Source: Kiritimatiellia bacterium (GTDB taxonomy: Bacteria; Verrucomicrobiota; Kiritimatiellia; CAIKKV01; CAITUY01). From it: 46,857 bases of DNA. The notes under the pieces are model-generated. The model had not been told where the DNA came from. It worked only from the letters and a program-made list of their open reading frames with translations, and did no database searches. The stretch is from contig JBIJCW010000001.1 of NCBI GenBank assembly GCA_044344495.1, positions 1 to 46,857 of the forward strand, given 5' to 3'. This document shows positions 2,104 to 38,164 of the stretch, in pieces (position 1 is the stretch's first letter; each line of letters opens with the position of its first letter). A program made the translations under genes and the position numbers.

Positions 2104-2220
2104 GCACTATGCGCCGCGTTATATTCCCCGTGGGAGAGGCGCTATGCCGCGTTATACTCCCCGTGGGAGGGGCGCTATGCCGCGTTATATTCCCCGTGGG
2201 AGGGGCGCTATGCGCCGCGA
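2104..2220. repeat. Tandem repeat, ~33-bp unit, 3.5 copies (GCGCTATGCCGCGTTATATTCCCCGTGGGAGGG)
   Basis: Read directly. The copies are at 2104-2138 (35 nt, 2-nt insertion), 2139-2171 and 2172-2204, with a partial copy at 2205-2220. The repeat sits in the convergent gap between the RdgC-like gene and the AI-2E transporter. Confidence 0.9.
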
Positions 2221-2274: not shown

Positions 2275-3396
2275 TCACAATTCACCATTCACATCCCCCG
2301 CTTCCCCCTCCACCTCATCCTTGCTCTTGGAATGCTTGCTGATCGAGGTGAATTCCCGCGCCAGCGAATACCCCACCGCCAGCAGCACCGGCCCCAGAAA
2401 TAGTCCGATAAAACCGAACGTCATCATCCCGCCAATCACACCCAGCAGCACAACCACAAACGGCAACTTCGACCCCCGGCTGATCAAATACGGCCGGATA
2501 ACGTTATCAATGCCGCTGATGGCAAAGAAACCCCACCCCGCCAGAAAAACACCCCACCCCACCCTGTCCACGCCAAAAAGCCACAACGTGGCCGGCACCC
2601 ACACGCACGGAGGCCCGCCGGGAATCAACGCCATCAGAAACGTCAACAACCCCCAGAGAAACGGGGAAGGCACTCCGGCCAGCCAGAATCCAAAGGCCGC
2701 CATAATCGCCTGCGCCAGCGCCGTGCCGATGATACCGTACACAACACTGCGCACCGTACTGCCCGCCACCTCGATCAGCCGTAACGACACATCCCCGGCA
2801 ATCCGATGCGCTCCCGCCGCCAACCGGTCCGCCACTCGCTCCCCATCCCGATAGAACACAAACACAATCACCACGCTCAACGTCAGTTGCAGAATGCCTT
2901 TCCCAAAATCAAGACTATGCGCCAATAACCATTTCCCCGCATTCATTCCGGCCGTTCGCATCGCCTCCGAGACCCACCCGGCGTTTTGCACAAACTGCGG
3001 CCAGGCCTTCTCCGCCGCAACCCCCACCCAAGGCAACTCACTGACCCAATCGGGCGGACTCACCGGAAACCCGCCCTGCAGGAACTTGAACAATCCCTCA
3101 AGACGGGAAACATTCTCTGCCAGCGTTACCCCCGCCACCACAAAGGGCAAAACCATGACCAGGGCAATCAGCGTCGTCATCACCAGGGCGGCATAGGTTC
3201 GCCGCCCACCCATCCAGCCGTCCAGCCGAAGCAATACCGGCCACGTCGTGTACGTCAGCACCGCCGCCCATAAAATAGCGGACACAAACGGCCGCAACAC
3301 CGCCAGGCATCCCACCGACAACAACGCCACGGCAACAACCGCCGCCACCGTTTCAATTCTGCTTGTCATCTTAAGCATGCCCTTCTCCTCTGCCAT
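2275..3396 (-). CDS. AI-2E family transporter (PerM/UPF0118)
   Basis: A multi-TM protein with the typical C-terminal half of the family: ...ALIPGGPP..., GIDNVIRPYLISRG.KLP, ...GGMMTFGFIGLFLGPVLLAV. Confidence 0.85.
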   Translation of the reverse strand: MAEEKGMLKMTSRIETVAAVVAVALLSVGCLAVLRPFVSAILWAAVLTYTTWPVLLRLDGWMGGRRTYAALVMTTLIALVMVLPFVVAGVTLAENVSRLEGLFKFLQGGFPVSPPDWVSELPWVGVAAEKAWPQFVQNAGWVSEAMRTAGMNAGKWLLAHSLDFGKGILQLTLSVVIVFVFYRDGERVADRLAAGAHRIAGDVSLRLIEVAGSTVRSVVYGIIGTALAQAIMAAFGFWLAGVPSPFLWGLLTFLMALIPGGPPCVWVPATLWLFGVDRVGWGVFLAGWGFFAISGIDNVIRPYLISRGSKLPFVVVLLGVIGGMMTFGFIGLFLGPVLLAVGYSLAREFTSISKHSKSKDEVEGEAGDVNGEL

Positions 3397-3563
3397 ATGC
3401 CCCCAAGCTTAGTGCCCGCCTAAAATACCGTCAACAAAATGTAATGACACCCTTGCACCAGGCGCATCTCCGGGTTTTGGCGACATGACATCAGCCACCC
3501 ACCGGGCTTGCCCCGGTGCAGGCAAACGTTGAACGCCCGTGACGGACCTGCCCATCATCCCAA

Positions 3564-7752: not shown

Positions 7753-9183
7753 CTACCTCTTGCGCGCCGCTTTCGCCTTGTAACTCCACTTCGCCAGCCG
7801 GACCGGCATCAGTAACATGCCCTGGAGATTCGAGTACATCGCGCTCGCCATGTACCGGAACGCCTCCCGCGTCGAAAAGGCGCCCGGCTCCTTAATTCGC
7901 GTAATCGCCAACACCCCCACAACCCGCAACAACGACGCCGTGAGGAAAAGCACCCCATGGTAAGTCACCGGAAGTCCAAACCAGTCCCCATGCCAGCTCT
8001 TCAAGTGATGGGCCAGAATCCCCCCGGATACACCACTTAGTAATCCAGCCCCCGCCACCACCACGCTGTTGATGGCCACATACGCCGTGTTCTTCGCCGT
8101 ATCAGCCTTCCGCTCCACCAACCCGAGCAAAATATTGTAGGACGCCAACTCAAGCCCCGGCCAGGCAAACGCCGCCAGCAATACCCCCGTATATCCCGGA
8201 AACAAATGACCCTCGCCAACAAAAATCCAAATCACCGATCCATGCACCATCCCCGCCCCGGCCAGGACCGCCACCGGCTTGCGCCCCAATCGGTCAATCA
8301 TGCGCCCCCAGAACGGCATGCTGACCAACGCCACCAACTGCGGAAAGGCGATCAACAGCAGATTCGCCATGAGATTGGAGATCTTCACGACATCAAACAC
8401 ATACAGCCACACGAACTGCCCCGTAAATCCCACCGAAAAGGTCAGCATCGCCGTGAACAACAGGTACCAGCGGAATGACCGGTTGGCCAACGGCTCCCGC
8501 AGCAGGTTCCGAATGCCAAAATCCCGGTTGCACCCCTGAACCTGCCGGTCCGGCACCGGCACAAAATACAGGATATCAATGATGCCCGGTATCGCCGCCA
8601 CCGCCAATAGCACACTCAACATCCGACTCAACGCCAACCCGCTGACCCGCTCCGCCTGATCCAGGAGCAACCCGGCCAGTATCGTCAACACCAGACTCAC
8701 CACCCCGCCTGCCTGGACGCGGCGGGACAGGTAACGCGCCCTGATCCGGGACGGCACCAGATCCAGCAGCCACGAGTGCCAGCAGGGCATAATCGTCTGA
8801 TTCAGCGTCGCAGAGAGCGCCATCAGCAGAATCAAAGCCACCGGCCCCTTGCCCGCCGGCACCAGCCATGGTATCGCCGCAATGACCAGCCAGAGCCCGC
8901 GGTGTACAAGATTCCCGGCAAGAAAAAGAAACTTCCTGTGCCCGTACCGTTCAAGCATGAAGCTTCCCGGCAACTGTCCCAGCGCCGCTACGAACGGAAT
9001 CGCCGCCATGAGCCCAAAGCCGAATTCGTCCACCCCCAGCTCACGCGCAAACCGGGTTAACACCGCCCCGGTGGTGATGGACATCCACGCCGCCCCGAAT
9101 AACCACGCCACCAGCACCCGGCGCATCACCGAGCGGGTGTCATCGGGACCAACCGGCCTGATCGTCTCTTGTTGTTCACTCAT
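7753..9183 (-). CDS. MFS transporter
   Basis: About 12 predicted TM helices. An MFS loop motif follows TM2 (G.LPGSFMLERYGHRK), with a repeat of the motif in the second half (WGRMIDRLGRKP). The start was placed at the ATG at 9183 (MSEQQET...). Confidence 0.8.
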   Translation of the reverse strand: MSEQQETIRPVGPDDTRSVMRRVLVAWLFGAAWMSITTGAVLTRFARELGVDEFGFGLMAAIPFVAALGQLPGSFMLERYGHRKFLFLAGNLVHRGLWLVIAAIPWLVPAGKGPVALILLMALSATLNQTIMPCWHSWLLDLVPSRIRARYLSRRVQAGGVVSLVLTILAGLLLDQAERVSGLALSRMLSVLLAVAAIPGIIDILYFVPVPDRQVQGCNRDFGIRNLLREPLANRSFRWYLLFTAMLTFSVGFTGQFVWLYVFDVVKISNLMANLLLIAFPQLVALVSMPFWGRMIDRLGRKPVAVLAGAGMVHGSVIWIFVGEGHLFPGYTGVLLAAFAWPGLELASYNILLGLVERKADTAKNTAYVAINSVVVAGAGLLSGVSGGILAHHLKSWHGDWFGLPVTYHGVLFLTASLLRVVGVLAITRIKEPGAFSTREAFRYMASAMYSNLQGMLLMPVRLAKWSYKAKAARKR

Positions 9184-9585: not shown

Positions 9586-10740
9586 TCACGGCAGGAACTT
9601 CGCCTTCTTGATCTTATCCGGCAGATAACTGTCGAGTACGTAGTTCAATCCGTGCTTGGCAAACGCCTGCTGCTCCACACGAACCCCCATCTTGAGCATC
9701 TGGTTCAGCGCGTCCTGCCATTCCTTGTGATGCCGGATGAACGGATCGTTCTTGAGCGCATCCTTGGCCCGCTTGATGTCCACATCCTCCAGCGGGTGGG
9801 TCGCATCCATCAACTTGTAGTCAATGATGTCCTGCGGCGTCACCCCCAGGTAATGCGCCTGCGGAACACAGAAAAACCGGTTGATGTGCGCCGCCTGGCC
9901 CGACCCCACCTTCAACGTCCGGTAAATGTTGCAGTAACCGTAGGGATCGCCGTCGGTAAACACCAGCACCGGCAACTTCCGGTCATCCGCCAACCGCCGG
10001 ATGAACCGCCGGCACGCCCGCGTCGGAACACCGCTCATGGACACCAGTACACATTTCGCCTTCTCATAGTACCGGTGATGCACCAGACGCTGGAACAGGG
10101 ATGAGGTCTCGATGACCAGGATAAACTTGGCGTCCGACTCGAACGCCAGATGCTCCACGCGCGCCGGAATACTCCAGGCGCCGGTCCCCAACTTCCCGCA
10201 ATTGATCTTGATGACCTCGCCCGTTGACGGATTCTGGTCCATCACGATCAGGGGCCCCGCCACGTCACCCCCACGCTCCTCGGGAATGTACCCGATCTGC
10301 TCGCGATTGACCCCCAGCATGGCCTCCATGTCGTCCAGCAACGTATCGCTCTCCGGCTGCTCGTCAAACCGGCACTCACCCCAACTCTTGCTGTTGTAGT
10401 AGATCTCGCGCTTTCCAGCGATGTCGTTCTTGTCCAACAGGTCCTTCTTGGTCGTGGCCAGCAACCGCATCGACTGCGCAAAGGTCTTCACCGTGTTGTA
10501 ACTGAGTGTCCGGGTGGCTACCTTGCCACGAATCTCGAAGTAACCGGTCTTGGGGTCATACTTGACGTTCGTCAGCGACCGGATCGGAAACCGTAGCGAG
10601 GGCTTCTTGAGTTTCTTGACGATATCCTCATAGACGCCGCGACTGACATCCACAATCCTCCGGGACACACCCGCCCGGGACGTCAACAACGCCGCCTCAC
10701 CACTCCCGCCCTTACTCTCGCCTGTCTTTTTCTTCGCCAT
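9586..10740 (-). CDS. top6A: DNA topoisomerase VI subunit A (Spo11/Top6A family)
   Basis: The catalytic-Tyr context is GKREIYYNSKSW. The Toprim region is ILVIETSSLF...VLVFTDGDPYGY. The overall length matches. The start was placed at MAKKK (ATG 10740); see the finding on a possible 38-aa upstream extension. Confidence 0.9.
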   Translation of the reverse strand: MAKKKTGESKGGSGEAALLTSRAGVSRRIVDVSRGVYEDIVKKLKKPSLRFPIRSLTNVKYDPKTGYFEIRGKVATRTLSYNTVKTFAQSMRLLATTKKDLLDKNDIAGKREIYYNSKSWGECRFDEQPESDTLLDDMEAMLGVNREQIGYIPEERGGDVAGPLIVMDQNPSTGEVIKINCGKLGTGAWSIPARVEHLAFESDAKFILVIETSSLFQRLVHHRYYEKAKCVLVSMSGVPTRACRRFIRRLADDRKLPVLVFTDGDPYGYCNIYRTLKVGSGQAAHINRFFCVPQAHYLGVTPQDIIDYKLMDATHPLEDVDIKRAKDALKNDPFIRHHKEWQDALNQMLKMGVRVEQQAFAKHGLNYVLDSYLPDKIKKAKFLP

Positions 10741-10744
10741 AATT

Positions 10745-10841
10745 GTAGTCCGTAGTCCGTAGTCCGTAGTCCGTAGTCTGTAGTCCGTAGTCCGTAGTCC
10801 GTAGTCCGTAGTCTGTAGTCTGTACTCCGTAGCCGTAGTCC
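10745..10841. repeat. Heptanucleotide tandem repeat, 14 units (GTAGTCC on the + strand, GGACTAC in gene orientation)
   Basis: Read directly: ten perfect units, three GTAGTCT, one GTACTCC and one 6-nt GTAGCC. The tract fills the top6B-top6A spacer. Confidence 0.95.
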
Positions 10842-10850
10842 GCGCCCCCC

Positions 10851-12542
10851 TCATACCTCCAGATGCGTCCGCTCCAGCATCGTCTTCAACCGCTCCACCA
10901 CGCGGCCTTCGTCACGGTCGCTCAAATCCAGCACATCCTTCAACCCCAGCGCCAGATGCGGAATGTATTTCTCGATGTAGGAACGCTTGCGCTCCGCCTC
11001 GGCCTCGCGGTGCCGCCGGCTCAAATGCACCGACAACCGCCGCCCGCACTCCTGCACACAAAAACCAATCTCCTTGATGATCTCCGGGTAGTGCGCAATC
11101 GCCTCCTTGCTCTCACTGGTGAACGGCACCCAGACGCTGGCTATATGCACCATGATCACCATCGGCCCCAACGGCACACCACCCCGGGGTTGCGTCAACC
11201 CGTAGTTCTTCCAGTTAACCCCGGAAATCGCCTTGGTAATCGCACACGCCCCGCCCAGGTAAAGCAACGGCACCCGGTTGGCAAACCGCATCACACGGGC
11301 CGGCTCATCCGCCCCGACATCCGCGTTCCCGCCCGGCTTGGCATAGGCAATGCCCACCTCAACCTGGAACGGATTGCCGCGGTAGACCGTCGGATCGCGC
11401 GTCACCGCCGTGCAAAACTCAGCCTCCATCTCCTTGGCCAACCCCGCCACAATCAATTCCTCGCCAATCGGCGACAGACAGTCCGTCGGCGGCCGCATCA
11501 ACTTGGTTTCATTGACCGCCTTGTAGAGCGTCTCCACCTCCCGGTTGGCAATCCGCCGCGGATTGGCCTTGGGATCCAACCCGGCCCTTGTGCATATATC
11601 CAAGGCCGTCTGACTGCTGACACGGGAGAAATCCTCCGAAAGGGATCCGCGTAACGTGCGGGATTCCGTGTCCCGCAACATCTGCATCAACATCCCGAGT
11701 TCCACCCCGTGCGGATGCGGCTTGATCTCCACCGGCGGCGTCGGCAACTTCCCGGCCAGGCGCGCCCATGAAATCCACTGCCCTTCCACCAGCGGAGTCG
11801 TCGCCTGACCCTCATTGTCAACCTCCTTGTTCAACAGATTGACACGGTAATGCAACTGCAGATGCGGATTGGCGATCAGACACTGCCGCAGATACTCATC
11901 CACCGACAGCCGGCCGCGTACATAGTGCGCCTCCATCTCAATCGCGACCGACGTACCGTGCTTGCAAACCACCGGTTCCGCCGCCACGCCCTCCACCCCG
12001 ATCCCCGGAAACGACGGCTGCCATTCAATTTCCACGTCCTTTAGAATTGTCGGCGCGTTCTTCCGGGTGTCAATCTGCACCTCAATGTAATGCGCCATCT
12101 TGCCGCGGGGAATCCTGGAGAGAATACGTGTCGCCGTGCCGGTCGTCAGTTGCCCGTACATCCCGGCCGCACTGATCCCGATCCCCTGCTGGCCGCGCGA
12201 CATCCGTAACCGGTGAAACTTGGACCCATACAGCAACTTGGCGAAAATCCGCGGCACCTGCGCTCGCACCACGCCGGGACCATTGTCCGTAATCGACACG
12301 CGGAACCGTTTCTCACCCGTCTGCGTGATTTCCACGCTGAGCTCGGGCAGCAACCCCGCCTCCTCACAGGCATCCAACGAATTGTCCACAGCCTCCTTGA
12401 CCGTGGTCAGAAGCGCCTTGCGCGGATTGTCAAACCCCAGCAAATGACGGTTCTTGAGAAAGAATTCCGAAACGGAGATCTCACGCTGCTGACGCGACAT
12501 GGTTTCGGCATTGGCAGTGGCAGTGGTGGTGGTTCGGGCCAT
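10851..12542 (-). CDS. top6B: DNA topoisomerase VI subunit B (GHKL ATPase)
   Basis: The sequence reads SVSEFFLKNRHLLGFDNP.KAL.TTVKEAVDNSLDACEEAG (Bergerat-fold N box), then DNGPG and GQQGIG. The transducer-length C-terminus is present. The start was chosen at the ATG at 12542 (GGGGAG upstream). Confidence 0.9.
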   Translation of the reverse strand: MARTTTTATANAETMSRQQREISVSEFFLKNRHLLGFDNPRKALLTTVKEAVDNSLDACEEAGLLPELSVEITQTGEKRFRVSITDNGPGVVRAQVPRIFAKLLYGSKFHRLRMSRGQQGIGISAAGMYGQLTTGTATRILSRIPRGKMAHYIEVQIDTRKNAPTILKDVEIEWQPSFPGIGVEGVAAEPVVCKHGTSVAIEMEAHYVRGRLSVDEYLRQCLIANPHLQLHYRVNLLNKEVDNEGQATTPLVEGQWISWARLAGKLPTPPVEIKPHPHGVELGMLMQMLRDTESRTLRGSLSEDFSRVSSQTALDICTRAGLDPKANPRRIANREVETLYKAVNETKLMRPPTDCLSPIGEELIVAGLAKEMEAEFCTAVTRDPTVYRGNPFQVEVGIAYAKPGGNADVGADEPARVMRFANRVPLLYLGGACAITKAISGVNWKNYGLTQPRGGVPLGPMVIMVHIASVWVPFTSESKEAIAHYPEIIKEIGFCVQECGRRLSVHLSRRHREAEAERKRSYIEKYIPHLALGLKDVLDLSDRDEGRVVERLKTMLERTHLEV

Positions 12543-12624
12543 ACTTCGACAACTCCCCATACTGATTTAGGTGGCACTCGCCGTTCCGGCGAATGCATTC
12601 GCATTTGCCAAGGGTCTGGAATGA

Positions 12625-13428
12625 TCACTGTGCATGACTTAATTCACGACTGCGCCGGGCAGCCGCCTGGATGGTTCGGACAAGAACGTCCGCCACCCCG
12701 TCATTCTCAAGAACCTCGCGCCCCGCCGCGGTCGTCCCCTTGGCGGACGTGACCGCCGCAGCCAGATCCGCCGGCGAAAGCCCCTGTTCCAGAAGCAGAC
12801 GGGCCGTCCCCTCCATGGTCTGGGCCGCTAGCATCAAGGCGGACTCCCGTGACAACCCTTCCCGGACCGCCCCGTTAACGAGACCATCCAGCAAATAGGC
12901 AAAGAAAGCGGGCCCCGAGCCACTCAACGCCGTGACGGCATCAAATTGATCTTCCGGCAATTCCAGCGCCCGACCGCAACACTCCAGCATCACCCTGACC
13001 TGCGCCGCGTCCGCCTCCGTCGCCCGCGCTCCACGGGTAAAGACATTCATCCCTGCCCCCGCTAGACAGGCAATGTTGGGCATCACCCGCACCACCCGTC
13101 CACGGGGCAACAGGGCTTCCATGCCCGCAATCCGCTTGCCCGCCGCAATGGAAATCACGAGGCGATCCGGCGTCACCACCGCTGCAATCTCCGCCAGAAC
13201 CGCATCCAGTTGCTGCGGTTTGACGGCCAGAAAACACACGTCGGCTTCCCTGACCACATCGATATTGGAGGCGCCCCCACGGATACCCAGCCGCCGACCA
13301 AGATCGGACAACCGGGCGGCATTCACATCGCTCGCCACCACCGACGTCGGCTCCACATACCGCCGCTCAATCAAACCGACCATCATGGCTTCCGCCATCT
13401 TCCCGGCTCCGACAAATCCGATAATCAT
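12625..13428 (-). CDS. proC: Pyrroline-5-carboxylate reductase
   Basis: The motifs are MIIGFVGAGKMAEAM, AVKPQ, RVMPN, ALSGSGPAF and SAKGTT. Confidence 0.92.
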   Translation of the reverse strand: MIIGFVGAGKMAEAMMVGLIERRYVEPTSVVASDVNAARLSDLGRRLGIRGGASNIDVVREADVCFLAVKPQQLDAVLAEIAAVVTPDRLVISIAAGKRIAGMEALLPRGRVVRVMPNIACLAGAGMNVFTRGARATEADAAQVRVMLECCGRALELPEDQFDAVTALSGSGPAFFAYLLDGLVNGAVREGLSRESALMLAAQTMEGTARLLLEQGLSPADLAAAVTSAKGTTAAGREVLENDGVADVLVRTIQAAARRSRELSHAQ

Positions 13429-37481: not shown

Positions 37482-37574
37482 GGGGATTAACCCTCTTGCT
37501 TTGTGTCCGTCGTGAACTTCGTGGTTAAGTCTTGTTTGTTCGAGTGGCGGAAAGCGAAGGAGAGAAAGGGACTC

Positions 37575-38090
37575 ATGAGTACAGCAGAAGTGGCGTTGGT
37601 GATGGGGAGTGATTCGGATTGGCCGCTCTTGGAGGACGCCGTTGGTGTTCTGGCCAAGTTTGAGGTGGAGAGTGAAGTGCGCGTCATGTCGGCGCACCGG
37701 ACGCCGGATCTGGCGGCGACGTTTGCCAAGCAGGCGGCGGGGCGCGGGCTCAAGGTGATCATTGCCGCGGCGGGCGGGGCGGCGCATCTGGCGGGCGTCA
37801 TTGCGGCGCATACGACGTTGCCGGTCATTGGGATTCCGGTGCCGAGCAATCTCATGGGCGGCATGGATTCGTTGTTGTCCACGGTACAGATGCCGGCGGG
37901 GATTCCCGTGGCGACGGTGGCGGTGGGCAAGAGTGGGGCCACGAATGCGGCGCTATTGGCCATCCAGATTCTGGCGCTGGGGAACCCGGCGCTGACGCGC
38001 AAGTTGGTTCTACACAAGAAGACACTTGGCGACAAGGTGAAGACCGGTAACGCGCGGATCCAGATTGAAGCGGCGAAGAAGAAAGCGTGA
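37575..38090 (+). CDS. purE: 5-(carboxyamino)imidazole ribonucleotide mutase (class I PurE)
   Basis: The motifs are VALVMGS.SDW, SAHRTP, IIA.AGGAAHL.GV.AA.T..PVIG.PV and S..QMP.G.PVATVA.G. The ATG at 37575 follows AAGGAGAG. Confidence 0.92.
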   Translation: MSTAEVALVMGSDSDWPLLEDAVGVLAKFEVESEVRVMSAHRTPDLAATFAKQAAGRGLKVIIAAAGGAAHLAGVIAAHTTLPVIGIPVPSNLMGGMDSLLSTVQMPAGIPVATVAVGKSGATNAALLAIQILALGNPALTRKLVLHKKTLGDKVKTGNARIQIEAAKKKA

Positions 38091-38129
38091 GGGTCAGGGG
38101 GGCTACGGATTAATAATGGGGGCAGGGTG

Positions 38130-38164
38130 GAATCCAGAATCCAGAATCCAGAATCCAGAATGGA
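38130..38164. repeat. Heptanucleotide tandem repeat (GAATCCA x4 plus degenerate GAATGGA) abutting a start codon
   Basis: Read directly. The units are at 38130, 38137, 38144 and 38151. The fifth, degenerate unit contains the ATG at 38160. Confidence 0.9.

Follow-up and report, generated by a model that had tools for sequence, protein, structure and literature searches.

The genes for the two subunits of a Top6-type topoisomerase lie side by side on the reverse strand of contig JBIJCW010000001.1 (assembly GCA_044344495.1, Kiritimatiellia bacterium), and the gap between them is occupied largely by a tandem array of 14 heptanucleotide units. This array is the subject of the present analysis, which covers the first 46,857 nucleotides (nt) of the contig, hereafter called the window. 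The array lies outside coding sequence, between the stop codon of top6B and a start codon of top6A that is conserved across the clade. Its length differs among strains whose Top6 proteins are identical, and it belongs to a class of repeats that is widespread in bacteria. An earlier note made from the letters of this DNA (hereafter the original prediction) had reported a 14-copy heptamer repeat in the top6B-top6A spacer, and both a unit-by-unit parse and Tandem Repeats Finder (TRF) agree. The features of the junction, listed in the direction of transcription, are as follows.

10851-12560, reverse strand: top6B (subunit B); longest open reading frame (ORF) 569 amino acids (aa), stop codon TGA at 10853-10851
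10852-10854, reverse strand: ATG that overlaps the top6B stop codon as ATGA, the coupled start of the original prediction; the evidence does not support its use
10842-10850, reverse strand: GGGGGGCGC, a G-rich segment from the top6B stop codon to the first repeat unit, the same in every same-species allele
10745-10841, reverse strand: heptanucleotide array, (G/A)GACTAC x14, 97 nt (from the sequence, TRF, and the unit parse)
10741-10744, reverse strand: AATT linker from the last unit to the top6A ATG (ACTT in the related contig L001)
9586-10740, reverse strand: top6A (Top6A/Spo11-type subunit A), 384 aa; conserved start ATG 10740 (MAKKK)

Composition and setting of the array

Thirteen units of the array are 7 nt long and one, GGCTAC, has only 6 nt; a single unit is the variant GGAGTAC. 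In gene orientation the units run GGACTAC, GGCTAC, GGAGTAC, AGACTAC twice, GGACTAC four times, AGACTAC once, and GGACTAC four times. TRF describes this series by a period of 7, 14.1 copies, 91% matches, and a score of 161. A two-unit pattern (at most one mismatch) matches the window nine times, vs. 0.01 matches expected from 100 dinucleotide-preserving shuffles. An assembly artifact as the origin of the tract was considered and is ruled out, because the tract recurs together with its flanks in at least eight contigs from at least seven samples.

The spacer from the top6B TGA to ATG 10740 measures 110 nt and consists of GGGGGGCGC, the 14 units, and AATT. The array is on the coding strand, and its last unit ends 4 nt before ATG 10740. 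This start codon had been described as having no obvious Shine-Dalgarno (SD) motif and, indeed, none is present within 20 nt upstream. A scan of positions 10400-13000 predicted neither a sigma-70-like promoter nor an intrinsic terminator in the gap, and a search of positions 10500-11100 against Rfam at a permissive threshold returned no family match, only a single chance-level match (E = 0.73).

Both flanking genes are readily recognized. The top6B product matches the Pfam families Topo-VIb_trans (2.6e-59) and HATPase_c; gene callers begin this gene at 12542, which yields a protein of 563 aa. The top6A product matches TOP6A-Spo11_Toprim (1.3e-56), Topo_VI_alpha, and TP6A_N.

Length variation among near-identical strains

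Exact-protein look-ups with Top6A, Top6B, and the nearest Top6A homologs found further contigs. Junctions of the relatives are given below, with the form of the codon that overlaps the top6B stop, its distance from the top6A start, and its frame relative to that start.

Window: reference; spacer of 110 nt with 14 units; ATGA, 114 nt, in frame
L081/L203 (Joint Genome Institute, JGI, 3300044987): identical Top6A and Top6B; spacer of 215 nt with 29 units; GTGA, 219 nt, in frame
L082: identical Top6A; contig begins inside the tract, at least 20 units; 3' part the same as in L081
L205, L206, L207, and L208: identical Top6B; contigs end inside the tract; GTGA, except ATGA in L207
L001 (metagenome-assembled genome, MAG, of Verrucomicrobiota): 98% aa identity; spacer of 46 nt with 4 units; GTGA, 50 nt, out of frame

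Among these close relatives the copy number at the junction is therefore 4, 14, at least 20, or 29 units, with changes in steps of 7 nt. The original prediction had proposed counting units in related strains as a check, and its expectation of length polymorphism is borne out by strains that have identical proteins and either 14 or 29 units, as well as by the 98%-identical L001 with 4. The first 14 units of L081 match those of the window one for one and are followed by 15 further units. L207 has both single-nucleotide polymorphisms (SNPs) of the window, the GTATGA junction and the GGAGTAC unit, and thus independently confirms the window haplotype. The tract also interrupts five short-read contigs of different samples, and such breaks are expected of a long or heterogeneous repeat. 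Together with the differences among samples, they are at most suggestive of heterogeneity in unit number within a population.

Turnover at the junction affects its sequence and not only its copy number, as is evident from L214, whose spacer is wholly different. This contig encodes a 98%-identical Top6A behind a 102-nt spacer that lacks a GGACTAC array and carries an SD-like GAGGAGGG before MAKKK. Its spacer (264-365) is made of degenerate short repeats resembling GGCTGTA and CCGTTAG, reminiscent of L012. At slightly greater distance, heptamers of the (ATGGTTA)n type abut the top6A ATG in L209 (96%), and TGAggaagccATG is found at the junction in L210 and L213 (94%).

One further contig, L204, was set aside as an allele because it is probably a chimeric assembly. 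It carries (2519-3507) an identical top6B and 9-10 units, after which unrelated sequence stands in place of top6A, and a convergent 308-aa ORF, without a match in the window, ends inside the array. The two parts were probably joined via a second (GGACTAC)n array of the same community or genome; the alternative is a rearrangement.

The junction across the wider clade

A wider comparison drew on 80 MAG loci of the Planctomycetes-Verrucomicrobia-Chlamydiae (PVC) group. In at least 16 related loci top6A opens with an M-A-K-K N-terminus (ATG-GCN-AAR-AAR), which establishes the start codon downstream from the tract as the conserved one; in most of these loci the gap from top6B measures 2-29 nt. The same span, 2-29 nt, separates top6B and top6A in the closest array-free relatives, mostly with an SD-like GAGG, GGAG, or GAGGAAG. 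Some array-free relatives (L007, L008, L010, and L011) share the near-overlapping junction TGAcgATG. Other heptamers fill the same gap in L065, L071, L073, and L074.

In three of these loci, L065 (3772-3966), L074 (3903-3974), and L071, inverted heptamer arrays span the entire gap. The first arm begins 3-9 nt past the stop codon of top6B, the second arm ends 5-19 nt short of the start codon of top6A, and a hairpin of the two would join stop and start codons over a gap of 100-240 nt. In some relatives at greater distance, palindromic motifs occupy the gap upstream of top6A: TTTTACGTAGAACGTAAAA-like motifs in two to three copies (L039, L050, L061, and L032), and TTTTCCAYNNNRTGGAAAA-like motifs in one to three copies (L044, L054, L055, L056, and L066). 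These palindromes resemble the operators of dimeric regulators, which suggests that top6A may be regulated separately in those lineages.

Predicted structure of the transcript

The RNA of the junction is predicted to be unusually weakly structured. Region 10690-10900 (211 nt) has a predicted folding energy of -31.9 kcal/mol, vs. -46.0 +/- 3.6 kcal/mol for dinucleotide shuffles (z = +3.92), and all 200 of 200 shuffles fold at least as well. The tract alone is predicted at -8.5 kcal/mol, compared with -22.3 +/- 3.4 kcal/mol for its shuffles. No G-quadruplex was predicted in the tract by ViennaRNA with its G-quadruplex option, which returned the same weak structure. A hairpin pairing the tract with the G-rich GGGGGGCGC, of the kind known from the hmw genes (see below), was also tried as a candidate; none is predicted, and the tract appears essentially unpaired.

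The same tendency is predicted for the segment from -60 to +30 around the top6A start. Its folding energy is -4.4 kcal/mol in the window, -1.7 kcal/mol in L081, and an intermediate -10.6 kcal/mol in L001, which has 4 units, and lies between -10 and -18 kcal/mol in array-free relatives. Given this weak predicted fold at the starts behind long arrays, a structured and usually SD-like junction appears to have been traded for a long, open, SD-less leader.

The upstream ATG and the open frame

The original prediction had viewed the ATG at 10854-10852 as a translationally coupled start in frame with Top6A, which gain or loss of one unit would disconnect. On such a model, ribosomes that terminate on top6B would reinitiate at the overlapping ATG or GTG and translate the tract as an RTTDYGL-type N-terminal extension of Top6A, and a change in unit number would break the frame, so that the tract would act as a slipped-strand on/off or coupling switch for subunit A. 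The observations on the letters hold. The ATG overlaps the top6B stop codon as ATGA and lies in frame with ATG 10740 at a distance of 114 nt, or 38 codons, and the resulting ORF reads through the tract to give a product of 422 aa that begins MRGARTTATEYRLQTTDYGLRTTDYRLRTTDYGLRTTIMAKKK and carries the 38-aa extension. The corresponding distance in L081 (GTGA, 219 nt) is likewise in frame, copy number is strongly polymorphic, and the TGAcgATG junction of L007, L008, L010, and L011 suggests ancestral coupling.

The open frame itself is explained by the composition of the repeat. In every cyclic phase, GGACTAC and AGACTAC are free of stop trinucleotides, and they have no start trinucleotide either; the complement, GTAGTCC, contains TAG. 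Because 7 is not a multiple of 3, a stretch of 21 nt takes any frame through each of the seven cyclic trinucleotides that the unit offers, and all three frames are consequently open across the tract in gene orientation, whatever the copy number. Openness is hence not evidence of coding; the one informative point is that the upstream ATG matches the top6A frame, which has a prior of 1 in 3. A practical warning follows for annotation, since a stop-free repeat unit yields long, spurious, in-frame N-terminal extensions.

A GGAGG had been noted immediately upstream of the ATG and is present at 10860-10856, but it ends only 1 nt before ATG 10854, which is too close for an SD motif, and it is part of the terminal Leu-Glu-Val codons of top6B. 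Base 10854 falls at the third, synonymous position of the Val codon that ends top6B, a GTA/GTG polymorphism. Among eight independent contigs it is G, giving GTGA, in six (L081/L203, L204, L205, L206, L208, and L001) and A, giving ATGA, only in the window and L207. A GTG at this position could still initiate in the GTGA contigs.

L001 speaks against a frame switch. Its top6A is intact and 98% identical despite the out-of-frame GTG, no other ATG, GTG, or TTG lies in the top6A frame upstream of MAKKK, and the MAKKK codon is the only in-frame start. An overlapping start that is mostly GTG, and out of frame in L001, does not have the conservation expected of ATGA coupling. Nor does the tract stand between a functional start and its ORF, as in phase variation, since the conserved MAKK start lies downstream from it. 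An exact-sequence look-up found no record of the 422-aa product, and the NCBI and JGI annotations both give the identical 384-aa Top6A. The claim that the ATGA-coupled start acts as an on/off switch of frame is therefore not upheld: L001 is out of frame while the MAKK start is conserved, the upstream ATG is a synonymous polymorphism, the open frame is trivial, and the extended form is not on record.

Heptamer arrays as a class

A tandem-repeat census of 692 kb, comprising the window and 82 related loci, was made for arrays of at least four copies. Period 7 was the commonest, accounting for 14 of 39 arrays, three of which are the top6 locus itself (window, L081, and L082); further period-7 arrays were assigned a period of 14 or 21. 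A second heptamer array in the window is the perfect (GAATCCA)4.6 at 38130-38161 on the forward strand, between purE (37503-38090; identified by an AIRC match, 8.9e-59) and a gene for an S41 peptidase. This array overlaps the ATG of the peptidase gene at 38160 and, like the top6A tract, abuts an SD-less start on the coding strand. A GTG at 38127, upstream of the GAATCCA array, opens a spurious in-frame extension through it. A repeat of another kind, a 33-nt unit (GCCGCGTTATATTCCCCGTGGGAGGGGCGCTAT) in 3.1 tandem copies of 95% identity, occurs at window positions 2113-2213 in apparently intergenic sequence.

Beyond these relatives, a metagenome scan for (RGACTAC)4 matched at least 120 unrelated contigs. 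The counts that follow, here and in the next paragraph, are among the matches listed, whose GC content ranges from 31% to 70%, and these included no top6 locus and added no alleles. Start-proximal bias was tested on single arrays in contigs of at least 50% GC, with crude, ORF-based gene calls. An ATG with a long ORF lay at most 12 nt downstream from 14 of 72 forward arrays, vs. 2 of 74 reverse ones (Fisher p = 0.0012); with a looser criterion the counts were 31 of 73 vs. 16 of 75 (p = 0.008). Many (RGACTAC) arrays are not beside starts, or form inverted pairs after stop codons.

All 21 inverted pairs run in the same order, (GTAGTCC)n-loop-(GGACTAC)n (binomial p ~1e-6), and they often lie just past stop codons between convergent ORFs. 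Carriers include L086, L091, L100, L106, L107, L114, L124, L128, L129, L133, L138, L148, L149, L151, L154, and others. Some pairs share an inner palindrome, GTT..GGAGG...CCGA.AAC, that lengthens the hairpin. The inverted pairs could be a family of elements resembling repetitive extragenic palindromes (REPs), miniature inverted-repeat transposable elements (MITEs), or terminators. One metagenome contig of 66% GC, L153, carries several heptamers side by side at 7780-8060, 11819-11930, and 13218-13330 (GAGTGCG, GGACCAC/GGACTAC x21, CACTCCG x10, and GAAATCT x4); heptamer repeats are evidently very abundant in some genomes.

The top6 tract is therefore a further example of the intergenic heptamer repeats known from bacteria. 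It is not peculiar to a topoisomerase, being one of many intergenic heptamer arrays that occur throughout the lineage and across phyla.

Interpretation of the top6 tract

We consider it probable that the tract is a hypermutable, untranslated, intercistronic simple sequence repeat (SSR) that may tune the synthesis of Top6A and does not switch its frame. From the arrangement of the locus we infer that top6B and top6A are co-transcribed, and the tract would then lie, untranslated, in the intercistronic part of their transcript. Replication slippage would lengthen and shorten it in 7-nt steps. The tract seems to have taken the place of the short (2-29 nt), usually SD-like junction that the closest array-free relatives have kept. 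Synthesis of Top6A would start at the conserved ATG 10740 behind a long, nearly structure-free, SD-less leader, and with a leader of this kind ribosomes probably initiate de novo on the open RNA, without coupling to the end of top6B translation. Copy number would set both how far apart the cistrons lie and how long the open leader is, and could thereby shift the Top6A:Top6B ratio gradually, with no on/off control of frame. Tract length may thus affect Top6A synthesis in a graded way.

Several points weigh against this interpretation. The two complete alleles with identical proteins are both in frame (114 and 219 nt) and differ by 15 units, or 105 nt; this would occur by chance about 1 time in 9 and is weak evidence that frame might matter, two complete same-species alleles (with five contigs broken inside the tract) being too few for a test of frame bias. 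Reinitiation at an overlapping A/GTGA needs no SD motif, and some translation of the tract is possible. Copy numbers were taken from short-read metagenome assemblies, in which tandem repeats may collapse or expand. Finally, an effect on the A:B ratio is purely conjectural, and the tract could be selectively neutral.

Of the competing explanations, the one that fares best is that the array is a functional RNA platform, either a ribosome standby site or a multivalent site for S1, a cold-shock-domain protein, or CsrA, which replaces the SD motif and sets translation by its copy number. Each unit offers an ACGGA motif, both window arrays abut SD-less starts on the coding strand, and the predicted structure of the tract is exceptionally low. 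Array-free relatives keep SD-like motifs that the array alleles lack, and the forward arrays among the matches listed are biased toward starts (14 of 72 vs. 2 of 74). Binding by S1, Csp, or Csr proteins has already been proposed for arrays of another heptamer, TAACTGA (PMC4679880). However, many arrays of the same unit among the matches listed lie away from starts or in inverted pairs after stops, and the bias test rests on crude ORF-based gene calls. Moreover, the GGA motif is missing from the GAATCCA array, which makes one binder with sequence specificity unlikely. On balance we consider a platform of this kind unlikely.

A broader form of this idea would hold that forward heptamer arrays are a general post-transcriptional device across phyla, acting as structure-free leaders that replace the SD motif and serve as standby sites or S1/Csp/CsrA-like platforms, with copy number tuning translation. 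We find this distinctly unlikely. If it were true, alleles with 0, 4, 14, or 29 units would determine the ratio of A to B in a topoisomerase that is an obligate A2B2 assembly, and free-living environmental bacteria would possess a source of heritable, reversible diversity in expression. 

The over-representation of intergenic heptamers in bacteria has been known since 2007. The top6 junction provides a natural allelic series in one place, with no array, 4, 14, or 29 units, and other heptamers in sister lineages. Because the Top6 products must assemble 2:2, an effect of repeat length on translation would be measurable as a subunit ratio.

The tract could also be a neutral by-product of a tendency of this lineage toward heptamer repeats, in which case the spacing between top6B and top6A would be unconstrained and expression unaffected. 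Gaps between top6B and top6A in the wider clade range from 2 nt to >1 kb with very diverse content, which is consistent with such neutrality, as is the tolerance of near-identical strains for 4, 14, or 29 units or for a different 102-nt spacer. Period-7 arrays are common across these genomes, and a bias in polymerase slippage has been proposed to explain an excess of heptamers (PMC4692102). Against this stand the tight, SD-like junctions of the closest array-free relatives, which argue that the junction matters for Top6A synthesis, and the forward, start-proximal bias, which is not expected of neutral debris. A purely neutral origin therefore seems to us very unlikely.

A coupled frame switch is highly improbable, even with the in-frame ATGA of the window in its favor, because the stop-free unit explains the open frame, L001 (50 nt) keeps an intact top6A without any in-frame upstream start, the upstream ATG is a synonymous variant whose GGAGG belongs to top6B codons, the MAKK start is conserved throughout the clade with no gene caller giving an extended product, the 98%-identical L214 has GAGGAGGG before MAKKK in place of the array, and arrays of the same kind lie upstream of unrelated genes. 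A topoisomerase phase switch does not hold as a reading of the tract.

Comparison with known repeat systems

Classical contingency loci employ tetranucleotide repeats in the lipopolysaccharide (LPS) genes of Haemophilus influenzae and pentanucleotide repeats in the opa genes of Neisseria. They resemble the top6 tract in being SSRs prone to slippage, with units of a length not divisible by three. The repeat of a contingency locus is located inside the frame, past the only start, such that frame determines the on or off state, whereas the conserved start of top6A is downstream from its repeat.

Another parallel is provided by the (ATCTTTC)n repeats in the 5' untranslated regions (UTRs) of H. influenzae hmw1A and hmw2A, whose number changes by slippage (PMC12721329; PMC8262952). 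Expression of hmw1A is inverse to repeat number and depends on a long 5'-UTR hairpin that the repeat forms with a G-rich partner and that is cleaved by RNase III (PMC12721329). Like the top6 tract, these are heptanucleotide SSRs upstream of a start; they are transcribed in the leader and have a graded effect rather than acting as a frame switch. The long hairpin of hmw has no counterpart at top6, where the predicted fold is unusually open and weaker than that of all 200 shuffles. The biological settings also differ, because hmw encodes a surface adhesin under host selection and the top6 tract occupies an intercistronic gap in the operon of a housekeeping-type enzyme.

An excess of heptameric SSRs is seen in many bacterial genomes (Rehm et al. 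2015, PMC4692102), an observation that was first reported, as this source relates it, by Mrazek et al. 2007. Intergenic arrays of GGGAATC in Xanthomonas and of GGGGAYT in Nostoc/Anabaena vary widely in length and sequence among close relatives, and inverted pairs occur (PMC4692102). A hypothesis relayed in the same work is that 7 nt corresponds to the length of DNA that the active site of the polymerase holds, with slippage bias leading to the excess of heptamers (PMC4692102). One array of 26 GGGGATT units is located between pecE and pecF (PMC4692102). This array, like the top6 tract, separates two cistrons of one operon. The products of pecE and pecF work as a heterodimer. In general, the Xanthomonas and Nostoc arrays share with the top6 tract a 7-nt unit, great length, near-perfect repetition, an intergenic position, and variability in length; in both settings heptamers are in excess over other periods, and some arrays form inverted pairs. 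Their units are G-rich and have been studied as formers of G-quadruplexes, whereas the G runs of GGACTAC do not exceed GG and the top6 tract is not predicted to form a G-quadruplex.

Arrays of TAACTGA are found in marine Beggiatoaceae, Cyanobacteria, and Bacteroidetes (MacGregor 2015, PMC4679880). They lie directly upstream of starts that mostly have no recognizable ribosome-binding site (RBS), and strains differ by 7-nt insertions and deletions (PMC4679880). Copy number reaches 43, most sets have 2-6 copies, and the genes that follow them are unrelated in function; a post-transcriptional role has been suggested, with S1, Csp, or Csr proteins as the proposed binders (PMC4679880). As at top6, these are forward heptamer arrays that end within a few nucleotides of RBS-less starts. 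The unit and the phyla are different, and TAACTGA contains the stops TAA and TGA whereas GGACTAC contains none.

To our knowledge, heptamer repeats have not been described before in uncultured PVC-group (Kiritimatiellia-like) bacteria, and the top6 locus extends the phenomenon of heptamer arrays to this group. On every feature tested, the top6 tract fits the descriptions given by Rehm and by MacGregor.

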